A program made the translations under genes and the position numbers. From positions 4,731 to 68,730 of the forward strand of contig CAZYEI010000001.1 in assembly GCA_964646425.1 (NCBI GenBank): a stretch of DNA of 64,000 nucleotides, read 5' to 3'. Below are positions 15,002 to 64,000 of this stretch, one piece after another. A model generated the notes under the pieces. The model had not been told where the DNA came from and made no database searches. It worked only from the letters and a program-made list of their open reading frames with translations. Source of the DNA: an uncultured Eubacteriales bacterium. GTDB lineage: Bacteria > Bacillota_I > Bacilli_A > RFN20 > JAISJY01. Every line of letters starts with the position of its first letter. The stretch's first letter is position 1.

Positions 15002-15991
15002 CTATTGTCCAGTTAATCCTGTTTGCTCGATACCTTCAACGAATTGTTTTTGAAGAACTGCATATAAAATTAACAATGGAATAATTGAGATTAAAGTTCC
15101 CGCCATTCTTTTTGCTTCGTTAACCATCTCTTTGTTTCCTTTATCAACACCACCAAGCAATGTATCAATGGCATTTAATTGATTTGGCAAAATTTGTAAG
15201 CCACCAGCTAAATAATATTGAGTTCCTAAAGTATCATTCCAATTCCAGACAAATGAAAACAAAAAGACAGTAATAATGATTGGAATTGATAATTTAAAGA
15301 TTACATGATAGAAAGTTTGGAAAGATGTCGCACCATCCATAATTGATGCTTCATCTAAGTCATAAGGAATTTGTTTAAAGAAACTATAACAAATTAAGAT
15401 TAAAATAGTTGAATAAACACCTTGTCCAAATAATGCTAATAATATTTGTGGAAGCACTGTTCCAATCAATTTAATTCCAAGTTTATCATAAATAGTTGTA
15501 AAAATCATTCGACGAGGAATAATTAACATTGGTGCCGGAATAATAAAGGCAGCAATTAATAACCCCCACCAAAACTTTGCCCCCTTAATTTTATATCTTG
15601 CTAAGGCATATCCAGCTAAAGCAGATATAATTGTTTGGATAAAAGCAAGTAAAAATGAGAACCAAACTGAATTAAGCAATGATGTTAAATAATCTAATGC
15701 AAGATAAGCTGCTTTATAATTAACAAATTGCCATTTCTTTGGTAATACTATTACTTCCGGATCAACTAAATCAGAACTTGATTGAAATGATGTGAAAAAC
15801 ATATCTAAAATCGGTTCTAAAAATACAAATGCAATAACAATTAACAATGCATAATAGACAAGCATTGGTAAAAATCCATCACGTAATCCATTACCAAATA
15901 AAAAATTCTTAATCTTTACCCAATTTATTTTCTTAAATTTTTCATATAATGCAACACCAGCATTTTTAATTTTAGTAACTAAATTTTTCAT
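15002..15991 (-). CDS. Carbohydrate ABC transporter permease (MalG/CUT1 family)
   Basis: Multiple TM segments and the EAA-loop motif EASIMDGATSFQTF are present. I moved the start to the ATG at 15991..15989 (MKNLVTK...), which has the Shine-Dalgarno sequence AAGGGGGG and lies 2 nt after the upstream stop. The longer ORF-track start at 16048 overlaps the upstream gene by 56 nt. Confidence 0.85.
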   Translation of the reverse strand: MKNLVTKIKNAGVALYEKFKKINWVKIKNFLFGNGLRDGFLPMLVYYALLIVIAFVFLEPILDMFFTSFQSSSDLVDPEVIVLPKKWQFVNYKAAYLALDYLTSLLNSVWFSFLLAFIQTIISALAGYALARYKIKGAKFWWGLLIAAFIIPAPMLIIPRRMIFTTIYDKLGIKLIGTVLPQILLALFGQGVYSTILILICYSFFKQIPYDLDEASIMDGATSFQTFYHVIFKLSIPIIITVFLFSFVWNWNDTLGTQYYLAGGLQILPNQLNAIDTLLGGVDKGNKEMVNEAKRMAGTLISIIPLLILYAVLQKQFVEGIEQTGLTGQ

Positions 15992-15992
15992 T

Positions 15993-17108: not shown

Positions 17109-17109
17109 A

Positions 17110-19557
17110 TTATAACACCTCGAATCCTTGAGCTGAAACTTTTGTTTCACCATAAGTAAGAGGTGAATCACTATAGTTTATTACAATTTTCTTTCCATTA
17201 CTATATTCATTTACAATTAAACCATTTTCTAATTTTGTACGATTAATCCAATCTGCATTAATTACTTTTCCTAAAGCACTATCAACTTGTGTATAAATAT
17301 TCTTAATCATCTCTTTATATAATGAATATTCAGTTGAATAATAATTTGAACTATTAGTATATGATAAATAATGCGAAGATTCTTGGCTTAAAACAAATGA
17401 AGGATAAACATTAAAATCTATCATTTTTAAAATACTTTCTTGATCATAGAAACTAAAATTACTATATGGTGCATATAGTTCCATACAACCATTTAAAACT
17501 AATTGTAGTAGTGGGATTTCTGTTTCTTCAATTAAATGTTGACTATTAAATACCGGAATATTGAAATATCTATCAACATATTTCCATAAATATTTATTTG
17601 GTTGTTCAGCATTTACCATACCTTTTCCATCTAAATATTTAAAAGCATTTTCAATATTTTCCATTGCTTTTTCTCTAGTGCCTTTATTATTTGATAAAAC
17701 ACGATTTGAAATACCAGTTACAGTCATTGAATTAATATTAGTTTTTTTACTTAATTCCTTATTTTGTGACTTAACCCATTTTAGTGAAGCATCACTTCTT
17801 GCATAACCAAATTCATTAATAAAGTAATGATTAAATGAAGTATATTCAATATATTTTCCATTATAATGTTTTGTTGCATTACCACTGAAACTTATTTGAC
17901 TTTCATTAATTAAGAAATAATCTTGGGAGAATGAAACATCAACATTTTGTTTTTCCATACTTGAAATTAATGATTTATATTCACTAGCAGTTCCTATTTT
18001 ACTTGTAAAATCTGCTTTATCAGGTCGTCCCAAAGTAATTCCTCCACTTTGCCAACCTAAAAGAGAAGTAACAATGTTGTCAATTCCATTATTTAAAGAA
18101 TCGTTTAAAATTGCTTTTACATCATTTGCTGTTGTTACAACAGCATCACTTGTCCCAAGAACACTTTCTTCAGCATCAGCCATAATGAAGTCTAAACGAG
18201 TAATAATATGCTCATTTTCAAAATTTTTCTTTGTTAATTGTTTTTCTTCATTTATTAAATAATCACGATAAGCCTTAGCAACACCAACATAGTTAGCATT
18301 ATCTCCTTCTAAAAAATCATAACGCATACCAATATCATAATCAAATGGATTATCATTTAATACCGGTGCACTAGATGTGCCATCTTGAGAATAGTATTCA
18401 GTATAATCAAAATTTGTTCTAAATGTTGCATATGCATAAATATAACTATCATTATCCGCGTTATCCGGACTAACATTAATAGCCATATGTTGTTCACCTT
18501 TAGTTGCATAAGCTACAACAGCTTTTTGTGAATTAGTTGCAGTTTCATTATGAACAACACCAAACATTGGCATTGATGCATCTTTCAAAGGAACCGTTGT
18601 TCTTCCTGATTCTGGACTATAATGTTGTTTATTTGTAGTATAATTTTGACCATATACATATGACTTATATACGCCAAGAGTTACATTACTATCTACAAAT
18701 GGAATAATTGCACCTGAACCATCAGGAACAATTATATATCCTTTAGCCATTTCTTTACTTATTTTTGTCTTAGTATCATAATCACCATTTTCAACAAATG
18801 TCTTAATTGTTTCTCCAGTTTCCGGATCAGTTGAATCTGATTCAACTTTTTTTGAAACAAATGGGCTACCTTCTCCACCTGTTGCGCCAATAAATGGGGC
18901 TATTGTTATATCTATTAATCTGTTTTTATCTGCACCAGTAATTTCTTCGTGACGAAGTTCAAATTCAATGCCTTTTTCATCAAAATAAATATGAACAGAA
19001 AGATTAATATCAGCCCATACTCCAATTTGAAAATCTAAACGATAGTGAGTATCACTATTATCGATTTTCATTAAAGTAGACTTACCATATTTTGGATTTT
19101 CATGAGCACTTGAAACTTTAAATAAATTAGTCATTGCTTTATCATCTTTTTTATAAATATATGCAGTAACTAAAGAATTGATTATTGAGTTTCCTGTTGT
19201 ATCTTCATATAAATCACAAACATAATTTGGATCAGCATTCATTGCCTTTCGACATGCATCTCTTGCTTCTCTTTTTGTTTGATAAGGAACATCAGCTCCT
19301 GTTTTCCATAATATTTCTTTTGAATTAACATCTTGAATTTGAATAATATCTAATGATTCTTTATATGAATATATATATTTACTATTACGATATAATTCAA
19401 CATATGTATCTTCATCCTTTGAAGATATGGCAGTTTTGGCAATTTCTTTTGTTGAGTTGTTATTTGCTTCTTCATTTCCAGCAATATTAATCAATGAAGA
19501 TAAAGGAAGCAAAAATACAATTAGTGCTAAATACTTAATTTTTTTAACTAATGACAT
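17110..19557 (-). CDS. Secreted protein of unknown function (815 aa) encoded within the ABC transporter operon
   Basis: The signal peptide MSLVKKIKYLALIVFLLPLSSLINIAG follows a strong Shine-Dalgarno sequence, AAGGAGG, and the start overlaps the upstream gene by 14 nt. I recognise no catalytic motif. It may be a DUF-type glycan-processing or glycan-binding protein. Confidence 0.5.
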   Translation of the reverse strand: MSLVKKIKYLALIVFLLPLSSLINIAGNEEANNNSTKEIAKTAISSKDEDTYVELYRNSKYIYSYKESLDIIQIQDVNSKEILWKTGADVPYQTKREARDACRKAMNADPNYVCDLYEDTTGNSIINSLVTAYIYKKDDKAMTNLFKVSSAHENPKYGKSTLMKIDNSDTHYRLDFQIGVWADINLSVHIYFDEKGIEFELRHEEITGADKNRLIDITIAPFIGATGGEGSPFVSKKVESDSTDPETGETIKTFVENGDYDTKTKISKEMAKGYIIVPDGSGAIIPFVDSNVTLGVYKSYVYGQNYTTNKQHYSPESGRTTVPLKDASMPMFGVVHNETATNSQKAVVAYATKGEQHMAINVSPDNADNDSYIYAYATFRTNFDYTEYYSQDGTSSAPVLNDNPFDYDIGMRYDFLEGDNANYVGVAKAYRDYLINEEKQLTKKNFENEHIITRLDFIMADAEESVLGTSDAVVTTANDVKAILNDSLNNGIDNIVTSLLGWQSGGITLGRPDKADFTSKIGTASEYKSLISSMEKQNVDVSFSQDYFLINESQISFSGNATKHYNGKYIEYTSFNHYFINEFGYARSDASLKWVKSQNKELSKKTNINSMTVTGISNRVLSNNKGTREKAMENIENAFKYLDGKGMVNAEQPNKYLWKYVDRYFNIPVFNSQHLIEETEIPLLQLVLNGCMELYAPYSNFSFYDQESILKMIDFNVYPSFVLSQESSHYLSYTNSSNYYSTEYSLYKEMIKNIYTQVDSALGKVINADWINRTKLENGLIVNEYSNGKKIVINYSDSPLTYGETKVSAQGFEVL

Positions 19558-21658
19558 TTCTAATCGCCTCCTTAAACAACGAACCAACATAATCAATCAA
19601 ATCACCAGCAAGCATTGTAATTATTAATATTACTAATAAAATTATCAACATAAATCCGATAGTAATAATAATACTCTTTATTGTTTGCCAGAAAGTATAA
19701 TTATGAATATTTTCAATACCCATAAAAATCATAAATCCTGTTAACCCAATTCCAGCATATTGAATTACTTGTAATAAAAAAACATCATCATATGTCAAGA
19801 AATGAGATAATATTGTAACAACAATCATTGAAATCATCCATGGAACAAGTGAATATCCAATCGTACGATAAATTGAAATCATTGTTCCTTCACCATCTTG
19901 AATAGAGGTTACCATATAATTACAATATATAAATAAACCAATAATGCCAACATATCCAGCAGTTAAAGCAATAAAGTCAACTTCAAAGGCTTCGACATAT
20001 TGATAGATAAATCCTTTACCTATTGTATACCATAAGAAAACTGCAAATGTAATAATATATAAAACTGTTGCCGCTAAAGTTGAACCTCTTTTTCCAGCCC
20101 TTAAATCATAAAAACTATCAGTTGGTTTCACTAATAATTGGTAAGTAAATTTTAAATCTTTAACCAGTTTAACATTATCTACCTTATTTTTAGCATTAAC
20201 AGCCACAGCTAAGCAATTAGTTCTCTTATGAACTTTCTTTAATATTACAATAGCAATGATTGCAATAAATAAAATCACTAATGCTGTAACTAAGTTATTT
20301 TGAATCCAAATATTACGAACTTCCCAATAAGCTTTTGAATATGATTGTCTATTTCTCGCAATTTCCAAATGGTACATTGCACTTTCATAATCTTCATTAT
20401 ATAAGTAATTTAAACCAATGTTATTATGAGCAAGTGAAGACATTTGATTCAATTCAATTACTTCTTCCCATAATGCAATTGATTCATCATAATGACCTAA
20501 ATCATATTCAGCAAGTGCTGCATAGATTTTTTTAGAGTAATCAGTAGGTGTAAAAGTGTGAACTGCAGCTTTTTCACTATCTAAACACCATATTTTTCCA
20601 TTATTATCAACAGCAATAGAAACTAATGAAGAGAACAATCCATCAATATCTTGAGTACTATCAGGTGTTTTACCACCAAACACACATAAAAATTCACCAT
20701 CATTAGTGTAAATATAAATATATCCATCATTACTTGCAGCATAAACAATACCTTGAGAATCAACATAAATATCAACTGGTGAGTTTGAAGAAACTAGATC
20801 ATACTTTGTAAATTGATTTACTCCTGCAGTATTGTGTTTTTGAATAAAAGCATAAGGTTTTGAATAATTTGTTGTAGTGTATAATAAACCATCTTTATCA
20901 GTAAATAAATTACTAAATAAAGGTGCTTGAATTGCTAAACCTAAATTTTCTTTTTGTTCTGTTGTAAATAGAATATCGTAAATATAATCCATAATTCCTT
21001 TAGTAACTTTGTTTGTTGCAAAATAGCCAAGGAATGAACCTTTCTTATCTAATTGAATTACACCATCGCCAATTCCATCTGCGATAACATAAACATTTCC
21101 ATTAATGTCGGCAGAAACTTTAGAAGGTTCAAAATCACGATCTCTAAATAAAGTGCTTGTTGGTTTTCCAAAAGCTGTATAATACTCAAATTTAGATGAT
21201 GAATCATTATATTGATAAATATATACATTTCTTGCTTCAGAATCCGCAATATAAAGCAAACGATTATTTAATTCGTTATTATATGTTATAAATACACCTC
21301 TAGGATTTTTTATATTTTCTCCTTCAATTGTATATAACAAATTCATATTATCATCAAAAACACGAACAGCACCCAAAGTATTTTTATCTAATTTTGAATC
21401 TGCAATATAAATAATATTGTCTTCATCAATAAAAATATCGTTTGGTTTATTTAGTCCAATATCTGTTAATGTTTTATTTGGTAAATAAGCATCTTGAGTT
21501 CTAATTAAACCATGTCCTCTTGCATCAAGAGAATATGTATATGATGTTGCATTTCCACTCATTTCTACTACCATAATATCTTTATTTTTTGGGGCCATTG
21601 CGAAACAAGTGAATAAAATAAGGACAACCGCAACAAATCCTTTTAATTTCATTTTCAT
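19544..21658 (-). CDS. Signal peptide + NHL/beta-propeller-like repeats + TPR + C-terminal polytopic Yip1-like membrane domain (704 aa)
   Basis: An N-terminal signal peptide (MKMKLKGFVAVVLILFTCFAMA) is followed by repeated ...IYIAD/VYVIAD/IVYAASNDGYIYIY... blades typical of NHL/YVTN propellers. TPR-like helices follow (ALAEYDLGHYDESIALWEEVIEL...NNIGLNYLYNEDYESAMYHLEIA), then a TM helix and a region of about 5 TM segments resembling the Yip1/DUF1282 family. The ORF is adjacent to, or overlaps, both neighbouring genes. Confidence 0.55.
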   Translation of the reverse strand: MKMKLKGFVAVVLILFTCFAMAPKNKDIMVVEMSGNATSYTYSLDARGHGLIRTQDAYLPNKTLTDIGLNKPNDIFIDEDNIIYIADSKLDKNTLGAVRVFDDNMNLLYTIEGENIKNPRGVFITYNNELNNRLLYIADSEARNVYIYQYNDSSSKFEYYTAFGKPTSTLFRDRDFEPSKVSADINGNVYVIADGIGDGVIQLDKKGSFLGYFATNKVTKGIMDYIYDILFTTEQKENLGLAIQAPLFSNLFTDKDGLLYTTTNYSKPYAFIQKHNTAGVNQFTKYDLVSSNSPVDIYVDSQGIVYAASNDGYIYIYTNDGEFLCVFGGKTPDSTQDIDGLFSSLVSIAVDNNGKIWCLDSEKAAVHTFTPTDYSKKIYAALAEYDLGHYDESIALWEEVIELNQMSSLAHNNIGLNYLYNEDYESAMYHLEIARNRQSYSKAYWEVRNIWIQNNLVTALVILFIAIIAIVILKKVHKRTNCLAVAVNAKNKVDNVKLVKDLKFTYQLLVKPTDSFYDLRAGKRGSTLAATVLYIITFAVFLWYTIGKGFIYQYVEAFEVDFIALTAGYVGIIGLFIYCNYMVTSIQDGEGTMISIYRTIGYSLVPWMISMIVVTILSHFLTYDDVFLLQVIQYAGIGLTGFMIFMGIENIHNYTFWQTIKSIIITIGFMLIILLVILIITMLAGDLIDYVGSLFKEAIRNVIS

Positions 21659-25177: not shown

Positions 25178-26521
25178 TTATGAAGTTTCCGGAATATATT
25201 TTGTCAATTTCCAATCTTTATCCATATCAATATCATTTCCAGTAACTTTTAAAATTTCCAAGGCAAAATAATTTATATGATCAACAATTAATTGCAAATC
25301 GTTAATTAATGATGCCATATTTTCCATTTCAGCACGTAAAGTAATTTCATGTTTTCCAGCACTTAAATATACATAATATGGATTGCCATCATCATCTTGT
25401 AAATGGGTATTGCTCCATGTATTTCCAGTATGTGGGAATGAATAATTTTGTAACTCAGCAAATGGAATAACTCCATCTATATAGACACTTCTAAAAGCAT
25501 CATATTCATTTTTATCGTTAATATAATGGAATCCCAATTGATAATATCCGGCAACTTCTACCTCTACTTCATATGTTATACTTTGTCCGGCTTTTTGCCA
25601 TGATGTTCCAGAAATTACATTTAATTTTTTAATATCAGTTGAATATGGAGTAACATTTGGAGTTGACTCACTTTCTAATCTTACGTATGAAGAATTTTTT
25701 TCTATATATTCTGTTGCATTAATTTTGTAAAGAGATTTTTGTAAACTTTGTTCGCCATATTTTGCTTTTATTTCATTTTGATAATTAGCATAGGAAACAA
25801 TTTTTTGTGGGGACTTTGCTTTTAATTGTCCTAACGCTAAAACACCACTGCTCGAAATAGAATTAATTGTTATTTTATTTTCACCATTTTCTAAATAAAA
25901 AAGTAAAGGAGTAGATGATTTATATTGATTGTCATACATTTGTAATGACATCCATTCATCTATTCTAACACTTGATGGAATAGTCTCATCGCCATAAGAA
26001 TCTAAAGGAAAATCTTTTGTTGAATCTTGCCAGTATAAAGGAACATCAATTGTAGATGCTTCACTATATTGATATTTATCATTAATTTCAATTCCTATTG
26101 TTTGATTGGTTAAAACATTATCTCCTACAACTCGATAATCAACTTCAATCTCATATAATCCTGATGTTGGAATATCAACTAAATAGTCAACACTTTCACC
26201 ATATTCAATAGTATAGATATTTCCATTAGAATAGCCATAATTATTGTTCTCTTGATTAGTTTTTGAAGACATTGAAGCTATTTCACTATCCTTCAATGAA
26301 TAATTAATATCTTTTTCACCTAAAAAATCAACATATGTTGTTTCGTGTTTAAAACTACTCGTTTCAATAGATTTAACCAGTAAATCATATGCATTTTTTC
26401 TTTCTTCTTCATTTATATTAAAATCAGGAGCAGAACCACTATTTGCTATTACTACTACTCCAACGGATAATAGTGCAATTAAGGTAACAATCGACACTAC
26501 TCTTTTTGTTTTTCTTCTCAT
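25178..26521 (-). CDS. Membrane-anchored extracellular protein of unknown function. Its frame continues into the SBP-like ORF downstream. It may be the N-terminal half of a tethered SBP gene that is disrupted or read through.
   Basis: I placed the start at the ATG 26521..26519 (MRRKTKRVVSIVTLIALLSVGVVVIA), which has the Shine-Dalgarno sequence AAGGTGGGG. The ORF-track start at 26557 has no SD and lies inside a hairpin. After the single TM anchor the body is rich in beta strand. The ORF ends ...KYIPETS-TAA, then continues in frame with [13 protein letters not shown]... Confidence 0.5.
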   Translation of the reverse strand: MRRKTKRVVSIVTLIALLSVGVVVIANSGSAPDFNINEEERKNAYDLLVKSIETSSFKHETTYVDFLGEKDINYSLKDSEIASMSSKTNQENNNYGYSNGNIYTIEYGESVDYLVDIPTSGLYEIEVDYRVVGDNVLTNQTIGIEINDKYQYSEASTIDVPLYWQDSTKDFPLDSYGDETIPSSVRIDEWMSLQMYDNQYKSSTPLLFYLENGENKITINSISSSGVLALGQLKAKSPQKIVSYANYQNEIKAKYGEQSLQKSLYKINATEYIEKNSSYVRLESESTPNVTPYSTDIKKLNVISGTSWQKAGQSITYEVEVEVAGYYQLGFHYINDKNEYDAFRSVYIDGVIPFAELQNYSFPHTGNTWSNTHLQDDDGNPYYVYLSAGKHEITLRAEMENMASLINDLQLIVDHINYFALEILKVTGNDIDMDKDWKLTKYIPETS

Positions 26522-26560
26522 AATTAACCCCACCTTAATTAATTGTAAAGACTGCATAAG

Positions 26561-26610: not shown

Positions 26611-28305
26611 TTAGAAATCAGACTCATTAAAGCCATAATAAGTAATCAATGATTGACGAATTAAACCAAATGCTTGCTCATAACGACCATTAATTACATC
26701 ATTATATTCGCTTAAGAACGCTGTATATGTGCTATACCAGTTCGGACTATCAATTGTAACACCTACAACATCTTCAACACCAAAGTTATCAATTTCATGT
26801 AAAATAGAAACTGTTTCTCCACCATCGTTCATATATTCTCTAGGGAATGCCTTATCTGAAACACCATAAATTTTTCCTTCTCCCCAAAGTCTAACAACTT
26901 CAGCAAATCCAGGGAATTTTTCAGCATCTGCAAATTCCATATGTCCAGGAGTAGATAACCAAATTTCCATTTGTTTATCATAATCATCACCCTTTGAAAT
27001 TAAAGGGAAAGATTGAGGAGTTGCATATGCATAAACATAATTACCATCATCATCTAATGTATCGGAATATTGTTGTTTACTTGCAGCTTCCCATGCATCT
27101 GTACTTGTTAGCCAGAAAGCAGTGAATGTATAGGCAATATCCATCTTCTTTAATTCAGCTTCACTACATGTATTGTTACCATCATCAGCACAATAGTTAT
27201 AAATAGAAATTGGATCTAAAACTACACCAACATGATTATCAACAATAACATCACCATTTGAATTTGTTAAAGCTGGACGAGGATAATAATCCCAATCATC
27301 TGATAATACTTCACTAGCTCCGCCTTCAGTATTTCCATAAACAAACATCCAAGGATGTTGATCAAGAGTTAGTAAACCACCTTTTGAGAAATAATAATAC
27401 TCATAATTGCCAAGTCTTGAAGTATAGTCTATAATTCCAGGATCAGTCCAATCTCCAGTAGCATTTTTAAAACTATATTGAGCTTGTTCAACAAGATTTG
27501 GAAGTGCTTGTTTAAAATCATCAGTAGCAAAATTTACATATGTTTCGCCACCTTCAAAATTTTGAAGTTGTGTTTCAATATATGCACCTTTTAGCATTGT
27601 CATACTAGCATCTAAGCTTCCATAATAAGAATAATCTACTTTATGTGAAACAAAGTCTGTGTAATCATCCCATGTCCAGTCAACATCTGGAGAAGCAATT
27701 TTTTGAGCTGTCGCTAATTCTCTATTTACATAAACTCCCCAAGGAATAGCATATTGAGGAAGCGCACCTTGGAATCCATAAAAATTACACATAGAAAGTA
27801 ATGATGGATTTAATTTCTTATATGCAGCATCATCTTTATATCTTGATAGATCTGCGATAATGCCTTGTTGCATATCATCATAAACATTTTTAGATAAGAA
27901 AATATCAGGATACGCTCCATTTGCAGCCTTATAATTTTCTAATTCAGCGCTCCAATCTTCCGGATCATCAGCTTTACTTGCTAAATTAATTTTAATATTT
28001 GGATATGTTTTATTAAATTCTTTAGCAATAGCATAAATCATTGCAGTATTAAATCCTGAAATTTCATTTGGTGCCCATTCAGCATGACCAATATCTTTAT
28101 GAGTTTGACCATCGCCAGCCCAAACCATAACAGTAATATCTCCACTTGTATTTTTATCAATTAAATCAGTTACTTGACCATTACCACCAGAAGCTGTATT
28201 ACTTGACTTATTTGGTTTTGAAGTATTACTGCCACCACACGCTGCAACTGACGTTAATAAAACTAATGAAGCAAGTAGAGTACTAAATTTATTAAATTTT
28301 TTCAT
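26611..28305 (-). CDS. Extracellular solute-binding lipoprotein (family 1, CUT1 oligosaccharide-binding)
   Basis: I placed the start at the ATG 28305..28303 (MKKFNKFSTLLASLVLLTSVAACGG, a lipobox), which has the Shine-Dalgarno sequence GGAGG 8 nt upstream. The ORF-track start at 28335 has no SD. An S/N/G-rich linker is followed by an SBP fold. Confidence 0.85.
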   Translation of the reverse strand: MKKFNKFSTLLASLVLLTSVAACGGSNTSKPNKSSNTASGGNGQVTDLIDKNTSGDITVMVWAGDGQTHKDIGHAEWAPNEISGFNTAMIYAIAKEFNKTYPNIKINLASKADDPEDWSAELENYKAANGAYPDIFLSKNVYDDMQQGIIADLSRYKDDAAYKKLNPSLLSMCNFYGFQGALPQYAIPWGVYVNRELATAQKIASPDVDWTWDDYTDFVSHKVDYSYYGSLDASMTMLKGAYIETQLQNFEGGETYVNFATDDFKQALPNLVEQAQYSFKNATGDWTDPGIIDYTSRLGNYEYYYFSKGGLLTLDQHPWMFVYGNTEGGASEVLSDDWDYYPRPALTNSNGDVIVDNHVGVVLDPISIYNYCADDGNNTCSEAELKKMDIAYTFTAFWLTSTDAWEAASKQQYSDTLDDDGNYVYAYATPQSFPLISKGDDYDKQMEIWLSTPGHMEFADAEKFPGFAEVVRLWGEGKIYGVSDKAFPREYMNDGGETVSILHEIDNFGVEDVVGVTIDSPNWYSTYTAFLSEYNDVINGRYEQAFGLIRQSLITYYGFNESDF

Positions 28306-28338
28306 TATTTTGCCTCCTATTTTACTAATTATCAATTC

Positions 28339-43161: not shown

Positions 43162-44493
43162 TTATTTTTTAAATTTTGGCATCATACCAGATTTCATCAT
43201 CTTGCCTAATTGTTGCATTTGGACACTCATTTGTTCAAATTGGCGAAGTAATCTATTGACATCTGAGACTTCTTTTCCACAACCTTTAGCAATACGAGCT
43301 TTTCTAGAAGCCTTAATTATATCAGGATTTTTTCTTTCTTGAGGCGTCATACTATAAATAATTGCACGAGTTATCTTTAATTTATCTTCTGCTTCTTGTT
43401 TTTGTTCTTCACTTAACTTTGGCATACCTGGAATTAATTTTAAAATCATTTTTAATGGTCCCATTTTATTCATTTGTTCCATTTGAGTTAACATATCTTC
43501 TAAATCGAATTTTCCAGCCATTAAACGATTCATACTTTTTTGTAATTTCTTTTCATCTAAATTTTCTTGAGCTTTTTCAATTAATTGAAGAATATCCCCC
43601 ATTCCTAAGATTCTTTCAGCCATTCTATCAGGATAAAAAATCTCAATATCATCAGGTTTTTCACCAGTTGTAATAAATTTCAAAGGAACTCCAGTCATAT
43701 GACGAATTGATAAAGCAGCTCCGCCCCTTGCATCGCCATCCATTTTTGTCATTACAGCTCCACTAATTTTAATTTGTTTATAAAATGAATCAGCAACATT
43801 TACAGCATCCTGTCCACTCATTGCATCAACAACTAATAAAACTTCTGTCGGATTAATTGCTTCTTGGATTTTTTTCAATTCATCCATTAATTGTTCATCA
43901 ATATGCAAACGTCCTGCTGTATCAACAATAATTGTATCATAGCCATGATATTTAGCATATTCTAATGAATTTTTTGAAATAGTTACAGGATCAACTTTAT
44001 CTCCTTCTTGAAAAACTTCTACATCTATTTTCTTGCCTAATTGAACTAATTGTTCAATTGCACCAGGACGATATATATCGCATGCAACAAGCATTGGCTT
44101 TTTATTAAATTTTTTTCTTACAATAGTAGCAATTTTACTTGCTGTTGTCGTTTTACCACTACCTTGTAAACCAACCATCATAATAATTGTTGGTTTATTA
44201 GTGTTAAAAGTTAATTGACAAACATCTTTACCTAAAAGAATTTTTAATTCTTCATTTACAAGTTTAACAACCATTTGGCTTGGTGTTAGAGTTGGCAATA
44301 CTTTCATTCCTACAAGACGATTTTTTAAACTAGCAACAAATTCTCTTGCAACTTTTACATTAACATCAGCTTCTAAAAGAGCAATACGAATTTCCTCAAG
44401 AATCTCTTTCATGTTATTTTCTGAAAGTGTCGATTCTCCTTTTATCTTTTTAAATATACCATTTAATCTTTCACTTAAAGCTTCAAATGCCAT
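43162..44493 (-). CDS. ffh: Signal recognition particle protein Ffh
   Basis: The NG domain carries a GLQGSGKTTT P-loop and DTAGR, followed by the Met-rich M domain. Confidence 0.95.
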   Translation of the reverse strand: MAFEALSERLNGIFKKIKGESTLSENNMKEILEEIRIALLEADVNVKVAREFVASLKNRLVGMKVLPTLTPSQMVVKLVNEELKILLGKDVCQLTFNTNKPTIIMMVGLQGSGKTTTASKIATIVRKKFNKKPMLVACDIYRPGAIEQLVQLGKKIDVEVFQEGDKVDPVTISKNSLEYAKYHGYDTIIVDTAGRLHIDEQLMDELKKIQEAINPTEVLLVVDAMSGQDAVNVADSFYKQIKISGAVMTKMDGDARGGAALSIRHMTGVPLKFITTGEKPDDIEIFYPDRMAERILGMGDILQLIEKAQENLDEKKLQKSMNRLMAGKFDLEDMLTQMEQMNKMGPLKMILKLIPGMPKLSEEQKQEAEDKLKITRAIIYSMTPQERKNPDIIKASRKARIAKGCGKEVSDVNRLLRQFEQMSVQMQQLGKMMKSGMMPKFKK

Positions 44494-57817: not shown

Positions 57818-59161
57818 ATGAATCATACTATTAGAAAAAACATTATTCAATTATTTTGGCCGATTTTTTTAGAAACATTACTTATGACACTTGCCGGAAG
57901 CGTTGACACTTGGATGATTTCTAATGTAAGTGACAATGCTGCAGGAGCAATTGGTACAAGTAACACCTTTATTGCTTTATTTGTAATTTCATTTAGTATA
58001 ATTAGCAGTGGTGTTATGGCTGTAATGACTCAATATATCGGTGCCAAAAAAGAAAGTGTTGCAGTTAGAGCATTTAAACTCGGATTAGTTCTTAATTTAA
58101 TACTTGGAATGGTTATTTCTTCTATTTTGTTTTTTTTCGCTGAGGATTTATTACATTTAATGAGTGTTAACAAAATTCAATTTAATGATGCTTTAACTTA
58201 TACTAAAATTATTGGAGCCACTGTCTTTTTAAACTCAATTACTCCAATATTCAGTTCTTATTTAAGAGCCTTCGGTAGAACATCACTTCCAATGATTTCA
58301 TCATTAGTTGCAAATTTATTAAATGTTGTTTTTAATGCAATTTGGATTTTTGGCTTATTTGGAGCTCCTAAATGGGGAGTAATGGGTGTTGCTTTGGCCA
58401 CGGTTATTTCAAAAATTTTTAATTTGGCACTAAATATATTATTTTCGATATTTCTAATTAAAACAAATAAAGATAAATATCAAATATCAAACATCAATAT
58501 TTTAAAACAAATTATCAAAATAGGTATGCCAGCTGCCCTTGAAACAACACTATATAATTTAGCAATGACATTAGTTTCTAAAATGATTAATTCAATGGAT
58601 AATGAGGGACTAAATAATACTGCAAGATCTTATGCACAAACCATTACAAATTTTTCTTATGTTGCTGGTGTTTCATTAGCACAAGCCAATGCTATAATGG
58701 TTGGCTGGGCAATTGGTGAAGAAAAGCAAGATGACGCTTATAAATTTACTTTAAATAGATTAAAATACGGACTAGTGATAAGTATAATTTGTTCAACAAT
58801 AATTGCACTTTCTTCTTCTTATATTCTTTCTTTATTTACTAAAAATCCTGAGATTATTAGATTATGTAAAATAATTTTATTTATTGATATAGTTTTGGAA
58901 TTAGGAAGAGTGACCAATTTAACAATTGGGCTTGCTCTAAAAACTTCTGGTGATGCATTATATATTGTAATAACAGGAATTATCTTTATGTTCATCTTTG
59001 GTGTTGGTCTTTCTTATATTTTTGGTATTTCACTAAAAATGATGGTAGTTGGTTGCTACATTGGGCTTGCCGCTGATGAATTGATGAGAGGGTTTTTAGC
59101 ACTTATTCGCTGGAAATCAAAAAAATGGACTACTAAGGGCTTAATAAAAAACCAAGCATAA
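57818..59161 (+). CDS. MATE-family efflux transporter
   Basis: The 447-aa product has 12 TM segments and a MATE-like N-terminal pattern (IFLETLLMTLAGSVDTWMIS). Confidence 0.8.
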   Translation: MNHTIRKNIIQLFWPIFLETLLMTLAGSVDTWMISNVSDNAAGAIGTSNTFIALFVISFSIISSGVMAVMTQYIGAKKESVAVRAFKLGLVLNLILGMVISSILFFFAEDLLHLMSVNKIQFNDALTYTKIIGATVFLNSITPIFSSYLRAFGRTSLPMISSLVANLLNVVFNAIWIFGLFGAPKWGVMGVALATVISKIFNLALNILFSIFLIKTNKDKYQISNINILKQIIKIGMPAALETTLYNLAMTLVSKMINSMDNEGLNNTARSYAQTITNFSYVAGVSLAQANAIMVGWAIGEEKQDDAYKFTLNRLKYGLVISIICSTIIALSSSYILSLFTKNPEIIRLCKIILFIDIVLELGRVTNLTIGLALKTSGDALYIVITGIIFMFIFGVGLSYIFGISLKMMVVGCYIGLAADELMRGFLALIRWKSKKWTTKGLIKNQA

Positions 59162-59164
59162 AAA

Positions 59165-59215
59165 AACGTATGTCAAGTTATGGTGAAGAATTTTCCCACA
59201 ACTTACATACGTTTT
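59165..59215. terminator. Bidirectional intrinsic terminator between the MATE gene and the convergent hydrogenase gene
   Basis: A hairpin AACGTATGT-AAGTT...AACTT-ACATACGTT is flanked by an A-run and a T-run. Confidence 0.7.
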
Positions 59216-59218
59216 TAT

Positions 59219-60646
59219 TTATTTTAAAACACCAATAGCATCAGAAATTGTTTTTTCCATTGCTTCTTTACCATATTTATCAACTTCATTTTTATCTTTA
59301 GCTTCATGAGTAAGGTTACAAGGTCCCCCAATACAACCTCCAACGCATGCCATACCTTCGACAAAGTTGTTTGGTAATGCTCCACGAGACGCTTTCATCA
59401 AAGCCATTTTACATTGTTCAATTCCATCACAAACGAGAGGATTAATAATTGATGTATCTAGGTTCATTTCAGTTGCTGCTTGTTTTACAGCATCTGTTAA
59501 TCCTCCGATACGAGCAAAAATACGGCCAAAATATGATGCATTATCTAAATAGTCTAATGGTAATGTTGACATATCAATTTCTTTTGAATCGATTAGTGCT
59601 TGTAATTCCTCAAAAGTTAATACTGAATCAACATATGGTTTAACCTTTTCTTTTTGCATCTCCATTTTTTTAGCAGTACATGGTCCGATAAAAACAATTT
59701 TACTTGTTGGATCAATTTCTTTAATATATTTTCCCAACTCAGCCATTGGCGAAAAATTATGAGAAATTTTATCTACCATTGTTGGAAAGTTTTTCTCGAT
59801 AAAACTAACAAATGCAGGACAACAAGAACTTGTTAAGAAACCTTTTTCATATAATTCTTTTGTTTCTTTCATTGCAACCATATCAGCTCCAAGTGCTGCC
59901 TCTACAACACTATAGAAACCAAGTTGTTTCATTGCACTGACTACTTGGCCCAATTTAATTGCAGGAAATTGAGCTGAAATTGAAGGAGCAACAATAGCAT
60001 ATACCTTATATTTACTATTTTGTTCACTCTTTTTAATCATATCAATTACTTCAACAATATATGATTTATCATTAATAGCTCCAAATGGACATTGATAAAC
60101 GCATGCCCCACATCTAATACACTTTTCTTCAGATATTTGAGCAGCATGTGTATCTTCATTCATTGAAATTGCTTTAACCTTACAAGCATTTTCGCATGGT
60201 CTTTTTCTATTGCCAATTGCATTATATGGACACACATTTGAGCATAATCCACAATTAACACATTTTGATTTATCAATATGTGCTTTTAGATGTTCATCAA
60301 ATGTAATTGCACCTTTTCTACATGCATTAGCACATCTATGAGCTATACATCCTCGACAAGCATCAGTAACATAATAACCACCAACAGGACATTCATCACA
60401 AGCAATATCGATTACTTCAATAACATTAGGATTGTTTTTATCGCCACCCATTGCTAGTTTAATTCTTTCACCAACAATTGCTCTTTCCTTATATACACAA
60501 CAACGCATTGTTGCTTTTGGTCCTGGAACAATTTCTTTAGGAATTTCTGTAAAACATTCCATTAATCTATCTTCAAATGCATGTTTAGCTACGCTTTTCA
60601 AAACATTATACTTTAATAATTGAACGGTTGTATCAAACTTCGCCAT
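59219..60646 (-). CDS. [FeFe]-hydrogenase catalytic subunit (HfsD/HydA-like) with N-terminal ferredoxin-like cluster-binding domains
   Basis: 4Fe-4S motifs CVNCGLCSNVCP and CIRCGACVYQCP are present. The H-cluster motifs are L1 TSSCCPAF, L2 GPCTAKKME and L3 EGMACVGGCIGGPCN. Confidence 0.8.
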   Translation of the reverse strand: MAKFDTTVQLLKYNVLKSVAKHAFEDRLMECFTEIPKEIVPGPKATMRCCVYKERAIVGERIKLAMGGDKNNPNVIEVIDIACDECPVGGYYVTDACRGCIAHRCANACRKGAITFDEHLKAHIDKSKCVNCGLCSNVCPYNAIGNRKRPCENACKVKAISMNEDTHAAQISEEKCIRCGACVYQCPFGAINDKSYIVEVIDMIKKSEQNSKYKVYAIVAPSISAQFPAIKLGQVVSAMKQLGFYSVVEAALGADMVAMKETKELYEKGFLTSSCCPAFVSFIEKNFPTMVDKISHNFSPMAELGKYIKEIDPTSKIVFIGPCTAKKMEMQKEKVKPYVDSVLTFEELQALIDSKEIDMSTLPLDYLDNASYFGRIFARIGGLTDAVKQAATEMNLDTSIINPLVCDGIEQCKMALMKASRGALPNNFVEGMACVGGCIGGPCNLTHEAKDKNEVDKYGKEAMEKTISDAIGVLK

Positions 60647-60658
60647 TCTAACTTCCTC

Positions 60659-61834
60659 CTAAAAATAACTGACTTTAATTTTTTTATTCATTTTTTCAAG
60701 ACACTTAGATAAATCTTCAACTAATTGCATCTTTATATTAAATGTAATAGGTAATTCTGGATTTTGGTGGGCAGGATTTATTGCCTTACCAACAAAGAAA
60801 TTAATATCAGTTGCTTCTTCAAACAATACTTTTGCGATTTTTGAAGCGCCATCATGACGATAATTCCATTCATAATAAAATTCATTATCATTTAAGTAAT
60901 CTTTAGCATATTCTAAAACCTTTGCAAAAGTAATAACCCCTTCTGTAACTAAGTCTATACCTTCAATTTTAGCCATTGGAGGAATATCAGGAGATAAACT
61001 TTCTAAATCAACTTCTATTTCTTTACCTAAATATTTTGCCACAATATTTGATGTAGTGCCACCACAAACAATATGTTTTCCATCTTTTCCTAAGAAAAGC
61101 GATAACATTTTATTATCATTAGCTGAATCAACTGGAGGCCCAATCAATAAATTAACTGGCTTTCTTTCTCTAATTTTAATGGCACAAACTGTTGTATCAT
61201 CACCAGGTTTAAATGCATATAATTGATTGCATTTATCAAGCAATAATGTTGCTGTAGACTTTGCCGAACGATCATTTTCAAAGTTTTCTTCCATAAATTT
61301 AACAATATTCTTTCTAGTCCAACCTAAATTTAATGATTGTCCAACACCAGCATGAATTGCGCCATCACTCATAAGCACGAAAACATCATCTTTCATTAAT
61401 GATATTCTTGCCTTATATATTGTTTTCCCCTCAATTTCTAAAGCCGTTTCTGGATATGCTCTACTTAATCCATTTCGCAATAAAATAACTGAAGGATTAT
61501 CAAAATTAATAATTTCAGCTTCGGAATTATTAACAATACGTAAAATTGTGAAAGTCGAATAAGCTAATTTTCTAACTTCACAAATTGGTAATGTTGAAGC
61601 AATTGTGGAAACACATTCTTCAAGCGGCATATTACTCGCCATCATAGTTGAAATAATCGTTGAAGTTAAGGTAGATAAAATACTAGCTTTAACCCCACTT
61701 CCAAGACCATCAGCAAGCACAATAACCGTAGATTGCTCATTTTCTTGCTCAATTATTTTTATGTGATCACCACATAATTGTTCGCCATATTTATTAACAC
61801 TAGAATAACCGATTTCTGTTGTAAGATTATTCAT
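60659..61834 (-). CDS. PP2C-type (SpoIIE-family) serine phosphatase, HfsC-like
   Basis: The N-terminal region ...CGDHIKIIEQENEQSTVIVLADGLGSGVKASI... carries the PPM metal-binding Asp residues. The gene overlaps the sensory hydrogenase gene by 8 nt. Confidence 0.7.
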   Translation of the reverse strand: MNNLTTEIGYSSVNKYGEQLCGDHIKIIEQENEQSTVIVLADGLGSGVKASILSTLTSTIISTMMASNMPLEECVSTIASTLPICEVRKLAYSTFTILRIVNNSEAEIINFDNPSVILLRNGLSRAYPETALEIEGKTIYKARISLMKDDVFVLMSDGAIHAGVGQSLNLGWTRKNIVKFMEENFENDRSAKSTATLLLDKCNQLYAFKPGDDTTVCAIKIRERKPVNLLIGPPVDSANDNKMLSLFLGKDGKHIVCGGTTSNIVAKYLGKEIEVDLESLSPDIPPMAKIEGIDLVTEGVITFAKVLEYAKDYLNDNEFYYEWNYRHDGASKIAKVLFEEATDINFFVGKAINPAHQNPELPITFNIKMQLVEDLSKCLEKMNKKIKVSYF

Positions 61835-63509
61835 CTTTCAAAGTCTCCTTTAATTTAGTTAAAGCAATCTTTGTTTCAGCAGTTGTCTCACCAAGCAATG
61901 AAGCAATTTCTTGTACAACTCTCATTTGCTTTTCAATCACTTTATCGGTTACTTCAATTGTTTTACGACTCATTTCATCTTTCTTTTCATGTTGAATTTC
62001 TTCTTTAGTAATATCACGCATAATAGACATTAAAATATGATAGTTTTTATCATAGATAATTGTTTCTTCGATATATTTTTTATACTCTGCTAAATATGAA
62101 CGCTTATCTTTAATTGTAATTTCATCAGTCATAGCATGCATATAATCACGAGGGTCTAATATGCTAACGCTAGAAACACCGATAACATCTTTAGGCTCTC
62201 TAATATTCAAAATATTACAAGCTGATTGATTTATTAGTTGGATTTCTAACGCTTCATTTAAAACAATAATTCCATTTGGAGAATTATTAATTATTGTGTC
62301 TGAAAATGATTCAGCTTTTTCCTTTAAAAATGGCAAGCACATTGAAATATCGGCTTTTCTTTGATAAACAGCTATCGCTTTTTCACGACATGTATCATAA
62401 CCACAACTTCCACAATTTAATTCATCTTCTTTGCGGGTTTTGCCCATATCTTTTAAGATTTGTTTTATGATATCTTCGCTTGGACGAGGCATATAGACAT
62501 CTTTAACTTTTATTTCTTTATGCAAGTCAGTAGCGCTAGGTTGCTTAATATTAATGTCTTCTTTTCCTGTATATTTGTTGACTTCAACATAATCACGAAT
62601 TAAATGCCTACGTTTTGATTTATCCATAACTGGACCACCGATACAACTGCCAATACATGCAGACATTTCAATAAAACAATGTGAAAGATTTCCATTTTTA
62701 ATATCTTCTAAAGCATTCATACAATTCTCAACACCATCAAGTGTTATATATGTATAATCTGTTGGAAACTTATCCATTGAGGCAATAACACCACCAGTTG
62801 TTGGAAAAATTCGTGCCTTTCCTTTTTCATCTATATCTTTTTCATTTGGATCTAGTTCAATATTATTTTCTTCAAGCCACTTAGAAAATTCTTCAAAAGA
62901 AAGCACGCAATCAATATATCCTTGATATTCATCTGCCTCAGCCTTTTTAGAAATGCAAGGTCCTACAAAGATTGTTTTGCAATTTGGATGTTCTTGTTTT
63001 AATTTTGCCCCATGGGCAAGCATTGGTGATAAAACATCAGCTAAATATGGTAGCAAACTAGGATAATATTTTTGAATTAAAGTATTAATTGAATGACAAC
63101 AAGAAGTAATAATAATATCTTTTTCTTGGTTTTTAACCATTTCTTCATAACGCTTTTTGACAATAGTAGCACCTACTGCTGTTTCTTCAGCACCTGCTAA
63201 TCCTAATTTTTTAACAGCCTTATCAATAGCCTTAATAGTAATACCATCATAATTTGCAATAAAAGAAGGGGCTATGCTAACATAGACCTCTTCCTTATTT
63301 TGTACGAACGATTTAGCAATTGGCAAATCATCACGAATTAACTTTGCATTTTGTGGACAAACGACAAAACACTTACCACACATTATACATTCATCATATA
63401 CAATAAGGGCTTGGTCATTTGCAAAACTAATTGCTTTTACAGGACAATTACGAATGCATTTATAGCAATTTTTGCAATTTGATTTTTTTAACTTTAGATA
63501 TTCTCTCAT
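61827..63509 (-). CDS. Sensory-type [FeFe]-hydrogenase-like protein with a C-terminal PAS domain (HydS/HfsB-like)
   Basis: An N-terminal 2x[4Fe-4S] domain (CIRNCP, CGKCFVVCP) is followed by H-cluster-like motifs with an altered L1 (TSCCHS), GPCISKK and EMSACIGSCIGGP. A PAS-like C-terminus ends the protein (...IINNSPNGIIVLNEALEIQLINQSACNIL...). Confidence 0.7.
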   Translation of the reverse strand: MREYLKLKKSNCKNCYKCIRNCPVKAISFANDQALIVYDECIMCGKCFVVCPQNAKLIRDDLPIAKSFVQNKEEVYVSIAPSFIANYDGITIKAIDKAVKKLGLAGAEETAVGATIVKKRYEEMVKNQEKDIIITSCCHSINTLIQKYYPSLLPYLADVLSPMLAHGAKLKQEHPNCKTIFVGPCISKKAEADEYQGYIDCVLSFEEFSKWLEENNIELDPNEKDIDEKGKARIFPTTGGVIASMDKFPTDYTYITLDGVENCMNALEDIKNGNLSHCFIEMSACIGSCIGGPVMDKSKRRHLIRDYVEVNKYTGKEDINIKQPSATDLHKEIKVKDVYMPRPSEDIIKQILKDMGKTRKEDELNCGSCGYDTCREKAIAVYQRKADISMCLPFLKEKAESFSDTIINNSPNGIIVLNEALEIQLINQSACNILNIREPKDVIGVSSVSILDPRDYMHAMTDEITIKDKRSYLAEYKKYIEETIIYDKNYHILMSIMRDITKEEIQHEKKDEMSRKTIEVTDKVIEKQMRVVQEIASLLGETTAETKIALTKLKETLKDE

Positions 63510-63539
63510 ACTAAAGTCCCCCTAACTGAAATTTTTTTA

Positions 63540-63785
63540 TTATAAAGCTTCTAGTACATATTTGTTAAAAACTTCTTCAAAATTTTCTGGAGTAACACCT
63601 GTTACAATTTCGTCATTAAATTTTACACTAACTCCAGCAGAAGCACATTTTCCTAAGCAGAAAGCAGCACTTAATTTAACTTTTTCAGTTAAATTATTCT
63701 TTGCTAAATGTTCTTTCATTAATTCAATAATTGGATAAGATCCTTTTAAATGACAAGAACTTCCTACACATACATAAATGTTCAT
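63540..63785 (-). CDS. Small thioredoxin-like [2Fe-2S] ferredoxin (HfsA/NuoE-like)
   Basis: The 81-aa product has four Cys in the CxxxxC...CxxxC arrangement (CVGSSCH...CLGKC). Confidence 0.55.
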   Translation of the reverse strand: MNIYVCVGSSCHLKGSYPIIELMKEHLAKNNLTEKVKLSAAFCLGKCASAGVSVKFNDEIVTGVTPENFEEVFNKYVLEAL

Positions 63786-63804
63786 ACAAATAATTCCTCC
63801 TAAA

Positions 63805-64000
63805 TTAATTTCCTTTATAAGCTTTTCTTAAAATTTCTTCCATGTCTTCTACTAATGGAACACGTGGATTTGCAGGAGAACATTGATCCTCATAAGCAAG
63901 TAAAGCAACTTTTTTGATTTGAGCATTCCATTCTTCTTCTTCAATTCCACAATCTTGGAAATTCATACCGATTCCAATTTCTTTTCCTAAATTCATAACT
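63805..64000 (-). CDS. Iron-containing (class III) alcohol dehydrogenase, C-terminal fragment. The gene starts beyond the window end.
   Basis: The C-terminal sequence ...AYEDQCSPANPRVPLVEDMEEILRKAY matches the conserved Fe-ADH tail (A..D.C...NPR....ED...I). The ORF remains open to position 64000. Confidence 0.5.
   Translation of the reverse strand, partial: VMNLGKEIGIGMNFQDCGIEEEEWNAQIKKVALLAYEDQCSPANPRVPLVEDMEEILRKAYKGN

Follow-up and report, generated by a model that had tools for sequence, protein, structure and literature searches.

We have studied a cluster of five genes at one end of a 64,000-nucleotide (64-kb) stretch of DNA from an uncultured bacterium (contig CAZYEI010000001.1); the whole of this stretch is called the window, and positions are counted from its first letter. 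The genes lie head to tail on the minus strand at 59219-64000. They comprise the 3′ end of an alcohol dehydrogenase gene, followed by genes for a small iron-sulphur protein (hfsA), a hydrogenase-like protein with a PAS domain (hfsB, or hydS), a phosphatase (hfsC) and an [FeFe] hydrogenase (hfsD, or hydA2). The cluster is an ordinary, intact member of the widespread and already described hfsABCD, or HydS-PP2C-HydA2, type; in its gene content, domain architecture, motif states, orthology and synteny this is a matter of observation. We consider it likely that the genes form the distal end of a (rex-)adhE-hfsA-hfsB-hfsC-hfsD operon with a HydS-type switch that would respond to H2.

An original prediction, made from the letters of the sequence, had likened the cluster to the hfs genes of Thermoanaerobacterium saccharolyticum and the HydS systems of Ruminococcus albus. 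The five open reading frames (ORFs), their coordinates and their order were confirmed in every detail by ORF calls, Pfam and NCBIfam. The iron-sulphur protein, PAS-hydrogenase, phosphatase and second hydrogenase genes follow one another on a single strand in the hfsABCD order, and plasmid pRUMAL01 of R. albus 7 carries a gene-for-gene counterpart in the same order and with the same 8-nt overlap. The assignment to this type therefore stands.

The arrangement is widely conserved. A scan of genomes, one per species, gave at least 600 matches, and the best 80 were used for counting, each feature being counted in the loci with enough flanking sequence. These best 80 come mostly from Clostridia, together with Bacilli/Anaeroplasmatales, Erysipelotrichia, Atopobiaceae and Flexilinea, and the closest sensor among the genome-scan matches listed is 63% identical to HfsB of the window. 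Protein searches with the sensor and with the phosphatase gave at least 8000 candidates each; nearly all of the 120 listed were full length, with identities of ∼58-67%. A phosphatase gene follows the sensor gene in 76/76 loci, and a group B hydrogenase gene follows the phosphatase in 54/67. An hfsA gene precedes the sensor in 70/77, with two copies in 43. The 8-nt overlap of sensor and phosphatase genes is kept in 74/76 orthologous loci, which supports the earlier proposal that it couples their expression. Because order and overlap recur across 80 species genomes, the gene arrangement is, on this comparative evidence, not due to chance. Kinase genes are present in 38 of 73 loci. The layout of the window, with one HfsA and no kinase, occurs in 16/73 loci and is a common variant; adhE without a kinase is rare (3/55).

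HfsB is, by its domains, its motifs and its linkage to a phosphatase, a putative H2-sensing [FeFe]-hydrogenase-like protein of M2f (group C3) architecture. In Pfam it matches Fer4 twice, Fe_hyd_lg_C with 168 bits, the PF04060 FeS family and PAS with 25.3 bits (cutoff 22.6), and in NCBIfam it falls under the cutoffs of both group A (84 bits versus 406) and group B (198 versus 450). The two N-terminal [4Fe-4S] motifs, the cysteines of which are invariant in both homologue alignments examined (A1 and A3), are followed by a domain with all four H-cluster cysteines: C138 (C300 in CpI), C185 (C355), C285 (C499) and C289 (C503). Its three loops are L1 TSCCHS (63090-63107), L2 VGPCISKKAE and L3 EMSACIGSCIGG. 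There follows a Cx2Cx4Cx16C motif, which is typical of putative sensory hydrogenases and has been described for the M2e and M2f subclasses (PMC8163306); its spacing is kept in 120/120 homologues listed. Beyond it lies the PAS domain, and the gene for the SpoIIE-family Ser/Thr phosphatase overlaps hfsB by 8 nt.

An AlphaFold model of HfsB has a mean predicted local distance difference test (pLDDT) score of 81.5. In this model residues 413-499 adopt the five-stranded beta-beta-alpha-alpha-beta-beta-beta topology of a PAS domain, with pLDDT ∼84. The PAS domain is followed by a C-terminal helical hairpin (residues 501-560) which has no match to a Pfam family. In the alignments it is the most conserved stretch of the protein, above the H-cluster domain; it holds a near-invariant 29-residue segment, and T542 and T546 at its tip are invariant. 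From this conservation the hairpin could serve the coupled PP2C phosphatase, and the APH-like kinase in clusters that have one, as docking site or phospho-acceptor. Were it a phospho-acceptor, the sensor would be its own phospho-switch.

The original prediction drew attention to the L1 motif TSCCHS of HfsB, which lines up with TSCCP in group A hydrogenases of solved structure, and took it as an alteration consistent with a non-catalytic role. The motif is present as described. It is, however, the norm of the family (∼95%) rather than a particular alteration, and both cysteines are kept: [ST][ST]CCH[ST] occurs in 117/120 database homologues listed and in 76/80 genome orthologues. The change from proline to histidine at position 301 is no established marker of lost catalysis. 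A relation of this histidine to the ‘histidine pendulum’ of proton entry was considered and rejected, since the preprint in question treats CpI H565 and H569, not 301.

Stronger signatures emerge when 86 HfsB and 60 HfsD orthologues are mapped onto CpI numbering by way of the CpI alignment segment. In the HfsB family S319 is replaced by Ala in 86/86, E282 by Met, Leu or Ile, and M497 by Ser (EMSAC, 80/80), whereas the HfsD family has Ser, Glu and Met at these positions. P301 is His in 82/86 HfsB sequences and Pro in HfsD. At E279 HfsD has Glu, whereas the HfsB column reads Tyr when aligned by MAFFT and Glu in the BLAST pairing. Of the canonical proton pathway (C299, E279, S319, E282, R286), HfsB has therefore lost S319 and E282, with E279 depending on the alignment, and it keeps Cys299 in 84/86; HfsD, too, has Cys at this position. 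Position 353, Met in CpI, is Gly in HfsB and does not discriminate, because the catalytic partner HfsD has Gly there too. All H-cluster ligands, together with K358 and E361, are invariant in 86/86 HfsB orthologues. HfsB of the window itself has C299, C300, H301, A319, M282, G353 and S497. The proton-relay Cys299 is usually lost in sensory enzymes, but 17% keep a Cys (PMC10055695), and its presence in HfsB thus does not exclude membership of the sensory class. From the alignments, then, the stronger indications of a sensor appear to be S319A, the loss of E282, probably that of E279, and M497S, all of which positions are unchanged in the partner HfsD. The sensor character of HfsB would rest on a relay broken beyond Cys299, on M497S, on Cx2Cx4Cx16C and on the PAS fold, and not on P301H alone.

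HfsD, the fourth of the hfs genes, does encode an [FeFe] hydrogenase as originally predicted, and can be specified further as group B: it scores 563.4 bits on TIGR04105, ‘monomeric [FeFe] hydrogenase’ (cutoff 450). Its L1 is TSSCCP, and E279, E282, C299, S319 and M497 are kept in 60/60 orthologues; K358 and E361 are retained as well. Compared with group A, its L1 has one additional residue, and the upstream Pro294 is absent (Phe in 53/60). For group B enzymes the presumed function is to evolve H2 in fermentation at the expense of reduced ferredoxin (HydDB, PMC5037454), and HfsD is presumed to be a catalytic, ferredoxin-linked, H2-evolving enzyme of this group.

HfsC begins directly with its PP2C domain and has no N-terminal regulatory domain. 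The closest solved chains are the phosphatase domains of Bacillus subtilis SpoIIE (5mqh, 3t91), with which its GD, DGxGxG, SDG and DDxT motifs align; these are at least 98% conserved in the family. The C-terminal domain (residues 222-391) carries invariant GGTT, TEG and NPAHQNP motifs. It belongs to no Pfam family, and Foldseek against the PDB gives nothing significant; it may bind a ligand or dock to HfsB. HfsA is a small thioredoxin-like [2Fe-2S] ferredoxin with cysteines C6, C11, C43 and C47. It matches PF01257 (E = 3.5e-10) over profile positions 67-144 of 145, and so resembles the C-terminal half of NuoE/HydC. The features of the region are collected in Table 1.

Table 1. Features of the adhE-hfsABCD region, with window coordinates
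Feature	Position	Strand	Basis or remark
adhE 3′ end, last 64 codons	63805-64000	-	PF25137 ADH_Fe_C; gene runs past window edge
adhE-hfsA spacer, 19 nt, with AGGAGG ribosome-binding site	63786-63804	-	Read from sequence
hfsA, [2Fe-2S] protein, 81 aa	63540-63785	-	PF01257
hfsB/hydS, PAS-hydrogenase-like protein, 560 aa	61827-63509	-	Fer4 x2, Fe_hyd_lg_C, PF04060, PAS
HfsB N-terminal domain, two [4Fe-4S] motifs (C12/15/18/22 and C41/44/47/51)	63345-63491	-	Fer4_10, Fer4_21, residues 7-55
HfsB H-cluster domain, residues 74-293	62631-63290	-	Pfam; mapping to CpI
HfsB Cx2Cx4Cx16C (C366, C369, C374, C391), accessory [4Fe-4S] site	62337-62414	-	PF04060, E = 2.9e-10
HfsB PAS domain, residues ∼404-499	62013-62300	-	PF00989 25.3 bits; PF13188 21.5 bits; PAS_9 residues 411-501
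HfsB C-terminal helical hairpin, residues 501-560	61830-62009	-	Model helices 501-539 and 543-559, pLDDT 53-67
hfsB/hfsC overlap, 8 nt, ATGAATAA	61827-61834	-	hfsB stop over hfsC start
hfsC, PP2C/SpoIIE phosphatase, 391 aa	60659-61834	-	PF07228
HfsC PP2C/SpoIIE Ser/Thr phosphatase domain, residues 10-221	61172-61807	-	PF07228 63.8 bits (cutoff 25)
HfsC C-terminal domain, residues 222-391	60662-61171	-	Rossmann/flavodoxin-like alpha/beta fold (model, pLDDT 89)
hfsD/hydA2, monomeric group B [FeFe] hydrogenase, 475 aa	59219-60646	-	TIGR04105
Hairpin and T-run between convergent hfsD and MATE transporter genes	59158-59222	.	RNA folding

Published genetics bear on how such a cluster could work. In R. 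albus the removal of H2 by a partner organism was accompanied by a 90-fold drop in hydA2 transcripts and by reduced ethanol production (PMC10838669). In T. saccharolyticum deletion of hfsA or hfsB raised the adhE transcript 2-3 fold; deletion of hfsB also raised hydrogenase activity, and no such rise followed deletion of hfsC or hfsD (PMC5707799).

We infer a chain of functional steps from the sequences and from these results. HfsD would dispose of the electrons of reduced ferredoxin as H2. HfsB would bind an H-cluster and, apparently lacking most of the proton-relay residues, would turn over slowly, with HfsA probably its redox partner. HfsC, translationally coupled to HfsB, would probably be bound to it. 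Occupancy or oxidation of H2 at the H-cluster of HfsB might be passed along the FeS chain to the extra C-terminal [4Fe-4S] cluster, and from there through the PAS domain and helical hairpin to the control of HfsC. The phosphorylation state of a putative HfsC target would then set the expression or activity of adhE and hfsD, so that high H2 would lead to ethanol and ferredoxin-driven H2, and low H2 to acetate. For the polarity we suggest that oxidised, H2-free HfsB restrains HfsC, and that H2 or the loss of HfsB frees it; this polarity would account for both the R. albus and the T. saccharolyticum results.

Some considerations weigh against an H2-responsive switch. No member of the family has yet been demonstrated to sense H2, to form a complex of HydS with its phosphatase or to have a phospho-target, and the exact mechanism of hfs mutations is stated to be still not known (PMC13277313). 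HfsB may retain real catalytic activity, given its Cys299 and the complete set of H-cluster ligands, and the E279 column of the relay argument depends on the alignment, as described above. Moreover, Pfam found no kinase, STAS protein or anti-sigma/HATPase protein among the window ORFs of at least 110 aa. Nor did 21.7 kb of L001, a 187-kb metagenome scaffold with a sensor homologue 83% identical to HfsB that serves as a stand-in for the upstream context, contain a kinase, a STAS protein or an obvious phospho-target.

The original prediction had suggested a search for a partner kinase or phosphorylated target, and had taken the lack of any as grounds for refutation. We looked by Pfam in every ORF of 110 aa or more, by tblastn with the R. 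albus cluster kinase, which is APH/RIO-like, and with a hidden Markov model (HMM) of 39 kinase sequences against the six-frame translation; these found no such partner across the 64-kb window, and neither the R. albus kinase nor its 39-member profile had a match in the window or in L001. The absence is thus real in the window, but as a refutation it is too strict. An adjacent kinase is absent from 35/73 orthologous clusters and, since about half of them lack it, the missing kinase does not refute the signalling model. Among the other window genes, Pfam identifies the housekeeping genes ffh, ftsY, rnc, plsX, recG, fakA, trmD, rimM, an aminoacyl-tRNA synthetase gene and an hflX-like gene, together with a locus that resembles those for beta-glucan utilisation and a set of MarR and ABC exporter genes. 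In many Bacillota a prpC-prkC pair (PP2C and PASTA kinase) sits between rlmN and rsgA. At L001:3131-5061 rlmN abuts rsgA, with no such pair between them. The lineage may be without this pair of a kinase and a phosphatase, a point that bears on the partner kinase missing here.

The most serious rival is the reading under which the genes were first named ‘hydrogenase-Fe-S’, with HfsABCD as a multi-subunit catalytic hydrogenase in which HfsB is a second active subunit, evolving or oxidising H2 and supplied with electrons through HfsA, the phosphatase only tunes the enzyme activity post-translationally and no H2 is sensed. HfsB does possess all the H-cluster cysteines, K358 and E361, with Cys299 in 84/86, and a [2Fe-2S] partner with two N-terminal clusters makes a plausible catalytic electron path. 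TamHydS interconverts H+ and H2 reversibly without the canonical proton pathway (PMC8163306), and HfsABC is possibly a functional hydrogenase without HfsD (PMC13277313). Against this, S319A, the hydrophobic replacement of E282 and M497S are fixed in the HfsB family, whereas the adjacent HfsD keeps the catalytic residues; the PAS domain, the extra C-terminal cluster and the obligately coupled phosphatase are features of signalling; and the T. saccharolyticum hfsB deletion raised hydrogenase activity rather than lowering it (PMC5707799). On balance we regard a purely catalytic complex as unlikely.

A second alternative keeps the sensor and changes its ligand. HfsB would respond to redox state instead of H2: donors linked to ferredoxin or NAD(P)H would charge its FeS chain by way of HfsA, and HfsB would signal the electron load of the cell to the phosphatase, with the H-cluster vestigial or acting as a buffer. 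The three accessory [4Fe-4S] sites and the dedicated [2Fe-2S] partner would suit such a role, as would the company of Rex, which senses NADH/NAD+, and of AdhE, which serves as a sink for NADH. The PAS domain is possibly responsive to intracellular redox potential (PMC11837493), and HfsC could bind a nucleotide in its Rossmann-like C-terminal domain. Yet the H-cluster ligands with K358 and E361 are invariant in 86/86, which argues for a functional H-cluster under selection, and the response in R. albus followed the removal of H2 by a partner organism (PMC10838669). We find this alternative quite improbable. It is very improbable that adhE and hfs are merely a Rex regulon under NADH/NAD+ control, with HfsB and HfsC regulating the activity of HfsD alone, for although Rex is the first gene in many clusters and adhE lies in 27/55, such that the sensor module needs no nearby adhE, the hfsA and hfsB deletions in T. 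saccharolyticum changed the adhE transcript from a separate locus (PMC5707799), the 19-nt gap between adhE and hfsA in the window implies a single transcript, and most of the cluster rex genes have no canonical Rex box ahead of them.

An operon with an H2-responsive HydS-type switch, our preferred reading, places adhE and rex upstream of hfsA. The upstream gene had been described as an Fe-type alcohol dehydrogenase. The adjacency is as described, but the gene appears not to be a plain Fe-ADH: the best NCBIfam match of the fragment at 63805-64000 is to PRK13805 AdhE, positions 805-866 of 872, i.e., the C-terminus of the bifunctional enzyme. Compared with the AdhE of L001, the fragment matches residues 804-867 at 88% identity. 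This scaffold has the order Rex (217 aa), AdhE (867 aa), HfsA, HfsB, HfsC, HfsD, with its Rex scoring 291 bits on the NCBIfam Rex model (cutoff 130) and its AdhE 1410 bits on PRK13805 (cutoff 951), and downstream it shares with the window the genes for MATE, L28, an acetyltransferase, MarR, two ABC exporters and Asp23. From this synteny, the fragment match and the model scores, the adjacent gene is in all likelihood a bifunctional adhE (acetaldehyde-CoA/alcohol dehydrogenase) with 64 C-terminal codons in the window, and the operon very probably starts with rex, past position 64000. The earlier suggestion of a link with ethanol metabolism is real and conserved, with adhE upstream in 27/55 loci.

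The operator region of this operon lies likewise past position 64000, and what can be said of it comes from relatives. In 16/35 Rex-bearing loci a palindrome, TATCGATA (extended form ATATCGATAT), is found between 24 and 114 nt upstream of the start of rex, and in one more it is 250 nt upstream (17/35); frequently there is a pair of copies, separated by 14-15 nt. In all, 23 sites were observed against 0.46 expected. The loci include L001:6404-6425, L004:4276-4298 of R. albus, L011:5473-5494, L029:1007-1028 and L015:5246-5268, and in L041, L051 and L063 the palindrome is upstream of adhE rather than rex. L001 shows no enrichment of the canonical Rex operator, TTGTTAA-N4-TTAACAA, and few of the rex genes in these clusters have one upstream. 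A literature search for a description of TATCGATA gave irrelevant matches only, and the element may already be known. The ATATCGATAT pair, which is no canonical Rex box and which about half of the clusters have ahead of rex or adhE, could be a candidate operator that carries the signal to transcription. We would give a slim chance to the idea that this operator, together with the HfsB hairpin as docking site or phospho-acceptor, is a lead to the output that is missing from the HydS pathway.

Within the window the signals for expression are those of an operon. The spacers adhE-hfsA, hfsA-hfsB and hfsC-hfsD are 19, 30 and 12 nt long, each with a Shine-Dalgarno sequence, and hfsC has an AAGGAG ribosome-binding site 9 nt upstream of its overlap with hfsB. 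The 19-nt adhE-hfsA spacer is too short for a terminator, and co-transcription of the two genes is therefore likely. At the other end, the hairpin downstream of hfsD has a folding energy of −26.2 kcal/mol and z = −6.3, with 0/200 shuffled sequences equally stable, and it is probably a bidirectional intrinsic terminator that ends the hfs operon. A consensus terminator scan of 58900-64000 found no site; it overlooked this hairpin, the stem of which is rich in AT. When the window was scanned with Rfam and for tRNAs, there was no match. A near-consensus sigma-70-like site, TTAACA-18-TATAAT with 11/12 matches, lies at 63539-63568 on the minus strand; it ends at the last base of the spacer between hfsA and hfsB, at a distance of 30 nt from the start of hfsB. 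An internal promoter of hfsBCD could be located here; promoter-like sites in the region as a whole are not above chance (20 observed versus 27.9 expected).

Elsewhere the window has a GC content of ∼30%. Its Ffh (43162-44493, minus strand) is nearest, at ∼60% identity, to metagenome-assembled genomes (MAGs) of Erysipelotrichaceae, Erysipelotrichales and Bacilli, and has metagenomic relatives at 93-94%, which suggests a low-GC, Erysipelotrichales-like lineage of the Bacilli. A large polysaccharide (beta-glucan-like) utilisation locus occupies 4162-30049 on the minus strand, with two GH16, one GH5, DUF5696, a Yip1/NHL protein, four ABC permeases, a solute-binding protein and a LacI regulator. 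Three of its ORFs, 10605-13781 (1058 aa), 25178-26557 and 26611-28335, have no Pfam match, nor does 1862-2782 just outside it. At 15002-21658 (minus strand) pairs of long ORFs overlap by 50-60 nt (15002-16048/15993-17171 and 17110-19596/19544-21658). Their start codons are GTG or TTG, and translation probably begins at sites further downstream.

Clusters of this type determine how fermentative Firmicutes divide their products among H2, acetate and ethanol, and so matter to the hydrogen economy of the rumen and gut and to the engineering of ethanol yield, for which hfsB knockouts are already in use. The copy in the window is nothing new in kind: it is a reduced module, without a kinase and with a single HfsA, directly behind adhE in an Erysipelotrichales-like lineage. 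The identity of the phosphatase substrate is a question for the whole family, which this window does not make more tractable. The list of residues (S319A, E282 to hydrophobic, M497S and P301H, with Cys299 kept) separates the sensor from its catalytic partner and could be used in the design of HydS mutants.

The individual proteins may be compared with known systems. HfsC has the PP2C catalytic fold and Asp motifs in common with the partner-switching phosphatases SpoIIE and RsbU. These have N-terminal regulatory domains, whereas HfsC has instead a C-terminal Rossmann-like domain with no family assignment, and by Pfam neither the window nor L001 encodes nearby the STAS substrate and the anti-sigma (HATPase) kinase of partner switching. 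HfsD resembles group B in passing the TIGR04105 cutoff, in its longer L1 and in its lack of Pro294. It differs from the M2a enzymes of that group, which have TSCCCP with an extra cysteine tied to O2 protection (bioRxiv 10.1101/2025.03.17.643706): HfsD and HydA2 have TSSCCP, with Ser at the position of the extra cysteine in 31/31 sequences scored. With Ser in place of the O2-linked cysteine, the HydA2-type subgroup of group B (59219-60646 of the window, minus strand, and L004:11844-13280) may differ in its behaviour towards O2.

In architecture HfsB corresponds to HydDB group C3, the ‘phosphatase-linked (putative)’ sensory hydrogenases (PMC5037454), and to TmHydS of Thermotoga maritima (M2f): two [4Fe-4S] motifs, an H-cluster domain, Cx2Cx4Cx16C, a PAS domain and linkage to a Ser/Thr phosphatase. 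As in TmHydS, M353 is Gly and M497 is Ser, and the canonical proton pathway appears to be disrupted at least in part. TmHydS has Ala at 299, whereas the HfsB family keeps Cys299 and has a conserved His301. Purified TmHydS and TamHydS have low turnover (PMC8163306, PMC10055695), and TamHydS has an increased affinity for H2 (PMC8163306).

The hfs operon of T. saccharolyticum has four genes, hfsA-D (PMC11837493), and was described by Shaw (2009) and Eminoglu (2017; PMC5707799). It encodes an FeS protein, a PAS hydrogenase, a Ser phosphatase and a ferredoxin-linked hydrogenase, and is likened to the window by this published description rather than by sequence. As in the window, no kinase is described, and there is a functional tie to adhE expression and ethanol yield. 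The T. saccharolyticum adhE, next to Tsac_0415, is treated as a separate locus (PMC5707799), whereas that of the window lies 19 nt upstream; and the one organism is a thermophile, the other a low-GC Bacilli-like MAG. HydS of R. albus is equated with HfsB of T. saccharolyticum, and HydA2 with HfsD (PMC5707799, PMC11837493).

The closest parallel drawn from sequence is the unit of R. albus 7, credited to Zheng et al. (2014) in PMC10838669 and PMC5707799 as rex-adhE-kinase-hydS-PP2C-hydA2. We found its locus on pRUMAL01 (L004) by tblastn of plasmids. It runs from Rex and AdhE through a 249-aa phosphotransferase and two [2Fe-2S] genes to HydS (558 aa), the SpoIIE phosphatase and HydA2 (478 aa), with HydS and phosphatase genes overlapping by 8 nt as in the window. 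The phosphotransferase, between adhE and the two [2Fe-2S] genes, is the APH/RIO-like kinase, whereas the window has no kinase and one [2Fe-2S] gene; and the R. albus unit is on a megaplasmid, whereas that of the window lies among housekeeping genes. Nevertheless, HydS is 55.8% identical to HfsB over 99% of its length, the phosphatases are 59% identical, and HydA2 is 66% identical to HfsD over 472 aa. The L1 motifs, SSCCHS in the R. albus sensor and TSSCCP in its hydrogenase, are of the same type as those of the window.

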